Origin: Verrucomicrobiales bacterium
GTDB taxonomy: Bacteria; Verrucomicrobiota; Verrucomicrobiia; Limisphaerales; J093
NCBI GenBank assembly: GCA_015075445.1
Contig: JABTUJ010000042.1
Location: 3,732 to 67,731 of the forward strand
DNA length: 64,000 nucleotides
Direction: 5' to 3'
The stretch's first letter is position 1. Each line of letters starts with the position of its first letter. The notes below the pieces were generated by a model, which searched no databases, was not told where the DNA came from, and saw only the letters and a list, made by a program, of their open reading frames with translations. Shown here one piece after another: positions 9,546 to 11,156 of this stretch. The translations under genes and the position numbers were made by a program.

Positions 9546-11156
9546 ATGAGCAAGCGGTTCTACATCACCACCGCGATCGACTATGTCAACGGCCAACCGC
9601 ACCTCGGCCACGCGTACGAGAAAGTCATCACCGACGTCATCGCGCGCGCGCGTCGCAGCCTCGGCGAGCCGGTCTTCTTCCTGACCGGCACCGACGAGCA
9701 CGGCCAGAAGGTACAGCAGGCCGCCCAGGCGGTGGGCAAGACCGCCCAGGCCTATTGCGACGAGCTCGCCGCCCAGTTCCAGGCCCTGACCGTCGCCCTC
9801 AACCTCTCCAACGACGACTTCATCCGCACCACCGAACCCCGCCACAAAGCCGTCGTCTCCGCCCTCCTCACCAAGCTCCATGACCAGGGCGACCTCTACA
9901 AGGCCCCCTACCGCGGCTGGTATTCCTGGAAGGAAGAGACCTTTCTCACCGACAAAGACCGTGGACCCGACGGCACCTTCGCCCCCACCTGGGGTGAGGT
10001 GACGGAGCTCGTCGAGGAGAACTGGTACTTCCGCATGAGCCGCCACCAGGGCTGGCTGCTCGATCACCTCGAAGCCCATCCCGACTTCGTCCAGCCCGAC
10101 TACCGCCGCAACGAGATCCTCGGCTTCCTGCGCTCGGTCGCGCTCGATGACCTCTGCATCAGCCGCCCCCGCGCCCGCCTCAGTTGGGGCATCCCCCTGC
10201 CCTTCGATCCGGACTACGTGAACTACGTCTGGTTCGACGCCCTCACCAATTACTTCAGCGTGCCGGCCGCCCTGGGCGATCCGGGCGCCCTCGAGCCGCT
10301 CGGTGCGTATGCACCCAAGGCCGAAGGCCGAAGGCCGAAGGTCGAAGGGCGAAGTGCGGGGGACGAAGTTCGAAGTCCGGAAGCCGAAGTCCGGCTGTGG
10401 CCGGCGGACGTGCACGTCATCGGCAAGGACATCGTCCGGTTCCATGCGGTTTATTGGCCGATCATGCTCCATGCGGCCGGCGTCCCCCTGCCCCACCAGG
10501 TGCTCGTCCACGGCTGGTGGCAGAAGGACGGCGAGAAGATGAGCAAGACCACCGGCAACGTCGTGGACCCCCTCGCCGTCGTCCGTGACTGGGGCGTCGA
10601 TGCCTTTCGCTATTACGTCGTGCGCGAACTCGATATCGGGCCCGACGGCAATTGGACCGATGCCGGGTTTCGCGCCCGTTATACGGCCGAGCTCGCCAAC
10701 GGCCTGGGCAACCTCGTCAACCGCTCGCTCGCCATGCTCCAGCGCTATCGTGGCGGGATCGTGCCCGCGCGCTCGGACGAGCTGGCCACCGAGGTCCTGC
10801 AGACCGCCAGCCGGCTCACCGCCCAGCTCCGCGCCCACCAGCTCCAGGCCGGCCTCATCACCATCTGGGGCCTCGTCAACCGCGCCAACCAGTACGTGGA
10901 CCAAACCGCACCGTTCAAGCTCGCCAAGGACCCCGCCCAGGCCAGCCGCCTCGACGCCGTTCTCTACAACCTCGTCGAGACGTCCCGCATCCTCGCCGTC
11001 CTGCTCTGGCCGTTCCTCCCCACCACCGCGGCGCGAATCACGCAGCAACTCGGCCTGAACGAGACCCCCGATCACCTCAGCGCCGCGGATTGGGGCGGCC
11101 TCGCCCCCGGCCATCGGATCGGCCAGCCCGAACCCTTGTTCCCGCGCAAAGAATGA
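9546..11156 (+). CDS. metG: Methionine--tRNA ligase (with ~27-aa low-complexity insertion)
   Basis: [25 protein letters not shown] (HIGH-type motif), [14 protein letters not shown] (KMSKS). The insertion [27 protein letters not shown] precedes [21 protein letters not shown]. Confidence 0.95.
   Translation: [536 protein letters not shown]
10316..10394 (+). repeat. Heptanucleotide array (GAAGGCC-like x ~11) inside metG
   Basis: aaggccg aaggccg aaggccg aaggtcg aagggcg aagtgcg ggggacg aagttcg aagtccgg aagccg aagtccgg. The array lies in frame within the coding sequence. Confidence 0.85.

Follow-up and report, generated by a model that had tools for sequence, protein, structure and literature searches.

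Many bacteria, above all those with large genomes rich in GC, have an over-representation of heptameric simple sequence repeats (SSRs) (Mrazek, Guo and Shah 2007, cited in PMC4692102). In Xanthomonas and Nostoc, GGGNATC repeats have an intergenic bias and are found at most 50 bp from stop codons (Rehm et al. 2015, PMC4692102). Their copy number varies, with four units preferred, and this was ascribed to G-quadruplexes. The same work reports under-representation in open reading frames (ORFs). Those sections of PMC4692102 that we draw upon throughout do not describe coding cases like the one considered below. Here, we describe a heptamer tract that lies in frame inside metG, the gene for methionyl-tRNA synthetase (MetRS), in a soil Verrucomicrobium of the Pedosphaerales/Limisphaerales. 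Alleles of the tract differ by multiples of 21 nt, and the loop in which it is found hosts heptamer arrays in many lineages of the order. The tract was first noted in a reading of the DNA letters alone (hereafter, the original prediction).

Related systems are known elsewhere. Heterocystous cyanobacteria reportedly contain short tandemly repeated repetitive (STRR) heptanucleotides, said to have been described by Mazel and colleagues in 1990. Phase-variable contingency loci with intragenic SSRs are found in Neisseria and Haemophilus. Low-complexity insertions occur in Plasmodium housekeeping proteins, and Rickettsia has palindromic elements inserted in frame. Insertions in parasite aminoacyl-tRNA synthetases (aaRSs) have been described for Plasmodium (PMC4828885). 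Literature searches yielded no direct account of heptamer repeats in Verrucomicrobia or in essential genes, and the one relevant paper was the general treatment of heptamer SSRs (PMC4692102). Likewise, we found no published description of an essential-gene heptamer array with 21-nt alleles, or of one enzyme loop hosting arrays across an order.

The DNA analysed, called the window, is a 64,000-nt stretch of a Verrucomicrobiales bacterium (assembly GCA_015075445.1, contig JABTUJ010000042.1, positions 3,732 to 67,731, forward strand). The host genome (G000) comprises 8.2 Mb in 100 contigs and has a G+C content of 67%. A near relative carries the genus label DSVZ01.

Results

A degenerate heptamer tract lies in frame within metG

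The tract contains approximately 11.7 NNCGAAG units. In phase, these read ACCCAAG, GCCGAAG (three times), GTCGAAG, GGCGAAG, TGCGGGG, GACGAAG, TTCGAAG, TCCGGAA, GCCGAAG and a partial TCCGG. Tandem Repeats Finder (TRF) reported a period of 7 at positions 10317-10393, with 11.0 copies, 74% matches, a score of 63 and the consensus AAGGCCG. Self-identity of the tract was 0.74 at lag 7 and 0.75 at lag 14; values at other lags were 0.11-0.35. The best 77-nt segment of metG had 52 lag-7 matches from a possible 70; in 2000 codon shuffles, matches averaged 28 and never exceeded 37. The in-frame product is a strongly charged peptide of 27 residues, rich in K, E, G, R and S. The original prediction had proposed about 11 heptads in frame in MetRS, with a product of this length, positioned past the FDALTNYFS block. 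All of this was confirmed by TRF, direct reading and translation; the tract is bounded by the WFDALTNY motif on one side and by the block at residues 285-300 on the other.

Perfect consecutive GCCGAAG units number only three (10320-10340). Because the tract is degenerate, with so few consecutive perfect units, we consider it only moderately slippage-prone. We also searched the tract for a canonical G-quadruplex motif (four G3 runs with N1-7 spacing). None was found, and just two GGG runs are present. An idealised (GGGCGAA)5 sequence does fold as a G-quadruplex.

Alleles of the metG tract differ by multiples of 21 nt

Tract length was measured at the DNA level, between the G-A-Y-A codons and the L-W-P-A-D codons. 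The allele set comprised six alleles from five or six sources. The tract is 82 nt in the window and in locus L178. It is 40 nt in P0125 and P0124 (-42 nt compared with the window), 61 nt in G007 and P0123 (-21 nt) and 124 nt in P0002 (+42 nt). Hence, in these close relatives, allele differences are always multiples of 21 nt, equating to three or six heptads, with 7 aa per step. All six alleles are phased NNCGAAG and 6/6 are in frame. The two 40-nt alleles differ in their internal units and are therefore independent products.

The 90%-identity protein cluster to which the window MetRS belongs has members of 522, 530, 536 and 522+51 aa, and a neighbouring cluster is 550 aa in length. Loop peptides of 12, 19, 26 and 40 residues coexist within one species cluster. 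Compared with the shortest allele of this cluster, the window tract provides only ~14 extra residues (two 21-nt blocks). In simulations, slips of 7 or 14 nt generated products of 329-349 aa without KMSKT, and three-heptad slips generated full-length protein. The allele steps and the simulations thus bear out the argument, made in the original prediction, that frame is kept only at particular copy numbers. The in-frame array of polA differs by -42 nt between G000 and G007.

An independent assembly from another sample in the European Nucleotide Archive (ENA; ERZ27309508, locus L178) matches the window at 99.96% identity across 2.3 kb, with a single substitution in metG and an identical tract. 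Misassembly, a possibility raised with the original prediction, is thus not the source of the tract. Homologous tracts, all in frame, are present in four further assemblies (one from the Joint Genome Institute (JGI), one from ENA and two from Logan). We sought further alleles in metagenome contigs. The 5' tract edge gave 0 matches and the 3' edge gave 2 chance matches, both in unrelated genes.

In G007, a sister metagenome-assembled genome (MAG; JAOSKK01) with numerous apparent frameshifts in essential genes, metG occupies two frames owing to a 1-nt homopolymer difference ~130 nt upstream of the tract. The polA gene of the same MAG occupies five frames and has one in-frame TGA. The metG allele of G007 is intact in a Logan contig. 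This points to assembly indel noise in essential genes rather than pseudogenes. We considered the G007 frameshift as evidence for phase variation and rejected it; the change is upstream of the tract, the MAG is frame-noisy and the allele is intact elsewhere.

Intergenic arrays beside metG vary between strains

Two heptamer arrays lie immediately downstream of metG. The (GGACCAC)n array is one heptad shorter in L117 (-7 nt) and one heptad longer in G007 (+7 nt) than in the window. For the (ACGCATC)n array, the window shows 4 units, whereas L178 (arrays at L178 2332-2462), with its unchanged metG tract, shows at least 18. Other cleanly anchored intergenic arrays differed by -14 and -28 nt between G000 and G007; this comparison covered over 800 kb, in which few arrays were cleanly anchored, and is supportive with a small n. 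We conclude that intergenic heptamer arrays are hypervariable at the strain level, because the ACGCATC copy number is 4 or at least 18 in strains that are 99.96% identical. Together, the metG tract and its neighbour form a natural experiment. One repeat process is seen with and without a frame filter, ~770 nt apart, giving 21-nt steps inside metG versus 7-nt steps just past its stop codon.

The tract maps to a MetRS loop modelled as disordered

The encoded protein matched Pfam entry PF09334 (tRNA-synt_1g; E=2e-87, 293.9 bits, cut-off 20.1) and the MetRS anticodon-binding domain PF19303 (32.9 bits, cut-off 23.5). Solved MetRS chains in the Protein Data Bank (PDB) matched at E=5e-124. An AlphaFold (AF2) model had a mean predicted local distance difference test (pLDDT) score of 90.6. 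Using Foldseek, this model superposed on MetRS from S. aureus, Thermus and M. tuberculosis with TM 0.86-0.92. The class I signatures HLGH (aa 19-22) and KMSKT (aa 331-335) are intact, and these columns are conserved in our orthologue alignment, A1. MetRS orthologues begin at MSKRF. One full-length MetRS match (n=1) was found in the host's own assembly, which is 87% complete. Judged from this single copy and the intact motifs only, aminoacylation activity is presumably retained with the loop present.

The N-terminal boundary of the loop is the WFDALTNY motif, in which W229, F230, D231, A232, L233, N235 and Y236 are invariant in A1. Residues equivalent to this motif line the methionine pocket in solved MetRS (E. 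coli, T. brucei). The proximal part of the loop follows and includes G244 and D245, both invariant in A1. This segment is found in all Pedosphaerales orthologues and is absent from Opitutales-type MetRS. At the C-terminal boundary, W285, P286, A287, D288, G293, K294, D295, I296, F299 and H300 are invariant. Residues ~248-282 do not align to solved MetRS; S. aureus has ~4 residues at this position and Thermus has ~7. Hence, the claim that the linker is far longer than in Thermus-type MetRS was supported. Modelling of the insertion had also been proposed with the original prediction. In the AF2 model, residues 261-279 have pLDDT<50, inside an otherwise confident fold, with a helix before and a strand after. 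The repeat-encoded peptide is thus modelled as disordered and would form part of a floppy surface loop.

The same loop is a hot spot for heptamer arrays across the Pedosphaerales

Between W.DAL..Y and WPAD, the loop is 9-12 aa in Opitutales-type MetRS and 12-13 aa in another Verrucomicrobial group. All Pedosphaerales examined have a loop of 25-71 aa. Hence, the proposal of a lineage-specific insertion into a ~15-residue linker does not hold. The Pedosphaerales loop combines a conserved GDPxxLxxL segment, which is helical, with a distal part that varies. Many distant lineages have a clean heptamer array as this distal part, set against the same Leu-Trp anchor, and the unit is lineage-dependent. 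Four copies are found for CCGCACT (L038), CGGCAAT (L057, L049), CTCAACC (L098, L030, L036), CTCGACC (L078) and CAGAATG (P0004), and five for CCGAAAT (P0003). Other arrays consist of CTCAAAT (L035, L033) or CCGNCAT (P0005), and P0018 has a compound CGAGGTG / CCGACCT / CCGCACT array. The loop peptides also differ by lineage and include KAEGRRP, PKSEIRN, MQNAECR, QPSTLNS, SAISNRQ and RTPHSAL.

In most other members of the genus to which the window belongs, the loop at this site is 31-41 aa long, rich in proline and alanine, and free of repeats. Alignment of orthologues, the check originally suggested for lineage-specificity, thus showed that relatives within the genus hold non-repetitive loops and that distant lineages have arrays of their own. 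In G005, the loop is 41 aa, equal in length to the loops of array-bearing sisters. This fits with a decayed array.

We built a MetRS tree from which the loop was omitted, and scored a loop as periodic if its distal lag-7 identity was at least 0.6. By this threshold, 19 of the 93 Pedosphaerales loops were periodic and 16 more were weakly so. Array-bearing loops did not group together on the tree but turned up in several clades, in among non-periodic loops of comparable length. Elsewhere in the metG coding sequence, heptamer periodicity reached 0.6 in 0 of ~10,400 segments of 45 nt. A further 14 apparent matches outside the loop all fell past the stop codon or in masked N runs. We conclude that the distal loop of MetRS is an order-wide hot spot for heptamer arrays.

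Units can differ between similar genes; P0004 and P0005 are 91% identical outside the loop and have different units. We also compared the metG unit with other repeats in the genome. For this purpose G104, G105 and G106 are the genomes of loci L038, L057 and L098, respectively. In G000 and G104, the metG unit is one of a family that is abundant throughout the genome; in G105 and G106, it is essentially unique in the genome. Matches to the CCGCACT pattern numbered 44, 1 and 5 in G104, G105 and G106; the corresponding numbers for CGGCAAT were 26, 2 and 7. Arrays of both units occur in these three Pedosphaerales genomes, and the unit families are therefore common to several genera. The possibility that the metG unit is copied from the dominant heptamer family of its genome was rejected as a general rule, since it fails in G105 and G106.

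The tract belongs to an abundant class of repeat in the host genome

Genome-wide, TRF detected 261 arrays of period 7 in G000, along with 157 of period 14 and 144 of period 21. Periods 6, 8 and 5 were represented by 74, 54 and 3 arrays, respectively. A few unit families dominate, and the CGAAGNN type (AAGGGCG, AAGGTCG, AACTTCG, AAGTCCG and others) is the main class of long arrays. The pattern (CGAAGNN)x4+CGAAG had 258 matches in G000, compared with 1 for a reversed control. Among 80 other genera in the order, just 3 contained it. A lag-7 filter recovered 336 heptamer-type arrays, totalling 25 kb. Approximately 31 of these were inside coding-like ORFs with coding-like flanks in one frame, a count that derives from a crude classifier of third-position G+C (GC3) and flanking ORFs, rather than from a gene caller, and is approximate. 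Hence, in-frame arrays are not peculiar to metG. The class is predominantly non-coding, and it is its coding location that makes the metG member atypical.

In-frame arrays of G000 encode peptides including (GRSSKDE)n, (LRPSDFA)n, (TTDHGPR)n and (HESRITN)n. Coding arrays are predominantly in the hydrophilic orientation (GRSSKDE / KAEGRRP type). Such arrays are found in polA, in an Aas-like acyltransferase/AMP-binding enzyme and in Ser/Thr kinases (Table 1), with ~20 more besides those listed. In paralogous Ser/Thr kinases, the arrays occupy one shared loop, just upstream of a DLDWIVxKxLxK motif.

Copy number of the period-7 arrays has a mode at 4 units, accounting for 88 of the 261 arrays, compared with 19 arrays at 3 units and 26 at 5. 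Among perfect arrays, 27 have 4 units, 12 have 3 and 9 have 5. The mode is absent for periods 6, 8 and 9. It is driven by the units AAAGCTC and AATGCAG, which are not G-rich. Therefore, a G-quadruplex requirement does not explain the mode.

Certain in-frame arrays are compound: a sense array comes first and its reverse complement after it. Examples are (GRSSKGE)n then (LRPSDFA)n, and GAGGTCA then CTGACCT. These form long imperfect palindromes inside kinase genes.

Gene content downstream of metG

Downstream of metG, close relatives have a plus-strand AP_endonuc_2 gene, which encodes a xylose-isomerase-like TIM barrel. The window has a minus-strand gene for a NAD-dependent epimerase, which begins right at the truncated ACGCATC array. 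The epimerase gene in place of the AP_endonuc_2 gene suggests gene replacement, with a breakpoint in or at the heptamer array.

Table 1. Coordinates of metG, its loop and the heptamer arrays discussed. Unprefixed coordinates refer to the window.
Feature	Coordinates	Strand	Basis or remark
metG, methionyl-tRNA synthetase	9546..11156	+	536 aa; ATG 9546, TGA 11154-11156
WFDALTNY motif, N-terminal boundary of loop (aa 229-236)	10230..10253	+	alignment A1, PDB MetRS alignment
Proximal loop part, order-specific, non-repetitive (aa 244-256)	10275..10312	+	predicted helix 246-255 (DSSP on AF2 model)
Heptamer tract, ~11.7 NNCGAAG units (P257-R283)	10313..10394	+	TRF, direct reading, codon-shuffle test, allele series
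Strand and helix block, C-terminal boundary of loop (aa 285-300)	10398..10445	+	strand 289-293, helix 294-310 in AF2 model
KMSKT, class I KMSKS motif (aa 331-335)	10536..10550	+	direct reading
Intergenic (GGACCAC)n array	11161..11201	+	TRF; starts 5 nt past metG stop; non-coding control
Intergenic (ACGCATC)n array, 4 units	11215..11245	+	TRF; abuts 3' end of minus-strand epimerase gene
NAD-dependent epimerase gene	11227-12180	-	
AP_endonuc_2 gene of relatives	L117 3174-4127; L119 3303-4256	+	downstream of metG
polA in-frame array (G000)	C34:90084-90176		linker between 5'-exonuclease and 3'-exonuclease domains
Aas-like acyltransferase/AMP-binding enzyme arrays (G000)	C1:57853-57966, C1:58542-58767		two arrays, one of 76 residues
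Ser/Thr kinase in-frame arrays (G000)	C41:18558-18658, C26:23730-23762, C26:33312-33344, C5:33593-33624		
Further in-frame array (G000)	C17:2188-2309		
Compound in-frame arrays (G000)	C36:74689-74842, C26:24340-24440		sense, then reverse complement
metG of G007	C37:292803-294393		two frames
polA of G007	C38:199814-202792		five frames, one in-frame TGA

Discussion

We favour the explanation that the metG tract is a resident, slippage-driven microsatellite that is tolerated in a permissive loop and filtered by reading frame. We put the probability of this at roughly 0.78. Briefly, a microsatellite of the CGAAGNN class would reside in the codons for a permissive MetRS loop that is disordered and at the surface. 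Heptads would be gained or lost through slipped-strand mispairing or by unequal exchange of units, as in the ~300 intergenic arrays. Changes other than multiples of three heptads would shift the frame, truncate the enzyme before KMSKS and be purged, because metG is essential and apparently single-copy. If only 21-nt steps survive, the length of the loop would change by 7 residues at a time. The peptide, rich in K, E, G, R and S, is most likely tolerated as a passenger without specific function and, in that sense, neutral. Later point mutations may spread through the array, creating a new unit, or erode it into non-repetitive loop sequence. Such a cycle of birth, decay and re-expansion would explain the differing units, or non-periodic loops of similar length, across the Pedosphaerales.

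Several points weigh against this interpretation. Slippage was not directly observed and the tract is degenerate, with 74% matches and three perfect units. Plain slippage also leaves unexplained why period 7 is preferred over 6 or 8 genome-wide, and why there is a sharp mode at 4 copies. The unit difference between P0004 and P0005, at 91% identity, needs either fast homogenisation or array replacement. Moreover, a charged flexible loop beside active-site elements may have a function and, with an assembly that is 87% complete, a second copy of metG is possible.

The peptide could instead be a selected, flexible and charged K/R/E-rich arm that aids binding of tRNA or a partner, with its length tuning function. 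Lysine-rich appended peptides do occur on eukaryotic aaRSs. In MetRS, the peptide carries a strong charge and, in the linear sequence, falls between two active-site elements, and every Pedosphaerales lineage examined has kept an extended loop. However, neither sequence, charge nor length is conserved among orthologues. At the site, sister lineages have QPSTLNS, SAISNRQ, RTPHSAL, MQNAECR or non-repetitive stretches rich in proline and alanine, alleles of 12, 19, 26 and 40 residues are found in one species cluster, and peptides of like type appear in the unrelated enzymes PolA, Aas and the kinases. The peptide is also modelled as disordered. The predominance of the hydrophilic orientation among coding arrays of G000 might be taken to favour an arm, but is equally expected under simple tolerance. 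On balance, we regard a selected arm as unlikely. A contingency locus, in which single-heptad slips toggle MetRS in a subpopulation, for example to allow dormancy, is far less plausible. A unit that is not a multiple of three, inside an ORF, is the defining architecture of phase-variable genes according to the sections of PMC4692102 used here, and simulated 7-nt slips would abolish the enzyme. Even so, no OFF allele is among the 6/6 recovered in frame, and the sole frameshift, in G007, is the 1-nt homopolymer difference upstream of the tract. In addition, metG is essential with one copy found (in the 87% complete assembly), and the tract is mid-gene and degenerate, rather than a long perfect run near the 5' end.

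Some features of the arrays could reflect a dedicated process with a 7-nt register, such as a polymerase, primase, repair activity or small mobile agent, for which the MetRS loop is a fixed target slot. Such a process would account for the excess of period 7 over periods 6 and 8, and for a 4-unit mode that has no counterpart in periods 6, 8 and 9. It would also fit with clean 4-5-unit arrays, built from unrelated units in different lineages, at an identical position in distant lineages, with unit differences between the 91% identical genes P0004 and P0005, and with the membership of the metG unit in an abundant family in G000 and G104. Conversely, in G105 and G106 the metG unit has essentially no other occurrence in the genome, and so is not copied from a dominant family. 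The P0004/P0005 change is compatible with divergence at a neutral site combined with homogenisation, the 4-copy mode reflects the units AAAGCTC and AATGCAG, and no candidate enzyme or element was identified. We consider this process improbable. A broader idea, that the MetRS loop is one of several fixed slots in essential enzymes that are repeatedly rewritten in a 7-nt register, across phyla, is similarly doubtful. If true, housekeeping proteins would, through such rewriting, regularly gain new loop peptides from non-coding heptamer arrays. The rewriting would also be a property of replication or repair, or of a tiny mobile agent, rather than of ordinary slippage. Lastly, the tract could be an assembly or binning artefact caused by a collapsed or chimeric repeat. 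Tandem repeats can be mis-sized by short-read assemblers, and the genome is a 100-contig draft. The chance of this is negligible; in the independent ENA assembly the gene is 99.96% identical and the 82-nt tract is the same, four further assemblies have homologous tracts in frame, and the tract is shorter than a typical read.

The tract shows that an essential bacterial gene can durably harbour a repeat with a unit length not divisible by three. If it is tolerated and filtered by frame, as we propose, such a microsatellite can, rather than acting as an on/off switch, generate quantised loop lengths and, after decay, new loop sequence. Our analysis extends the little-studied heptanucleotide repeats of bacteria to Verrucomicrobiota and to coding sequence. 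There are also practical consequences, since in-frame heptamer tracts can mislead gene callers, phylogeny from alignments of aaRS markers and checks of assembly quality.

The metG tract has the hallmarks of a heptanucleotide SSR, with head-to-tail units, an excess of period 7 and whole-unit copy polymorphism between strains. The class to which it belongs resembles the GGGNATC repeats, as these are presented in the sections of PMC4692102 drawn upon here. Both consist of tandem 7-nt units spread over the large GC-rich genome of a non-pathogen, with an intergenic bias and proximity to stop codons, and in both the copy number varies between strains with approximately four units preferred. Unlike those repeats, as so presented, the metG tract has no canonical G-quadruplex motif and is read in frame, midway through an essential gene. 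Its alleles form a series in 21-nt steps, and the protein loop that hosts it is a hot spot throughout the order. As for STRR sequences, several heptamer unit families occur in one genome as short tandem arrays. However, the phylum is Verrucomicrobiota, the units are others, and STRR sequences are reportedly known as intergenic fingerprinting markers, not as coding loops. Like contingency loci, metG has an SSR unit that is not a multiple of three inside an ORF, where slippage alters the frame. In contrast to such loci, metG is essential, its tract is degenerate and lies mid-gene, and every allele recovered is in frame, consistent with selection having removed the OFF state. For the protein, a parallel exists in the insertions of Plasmodium and Rickettsia. 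There too, repetitive or selfish DNA is tolerated as disordered surface loops in essential enzymes, with polymorphic length. The difference is that the metG loop derives from a 7-nt DNA repeat with a 7-residue period, and not from 3n slippage of AT-rich codons or a palindromic element.

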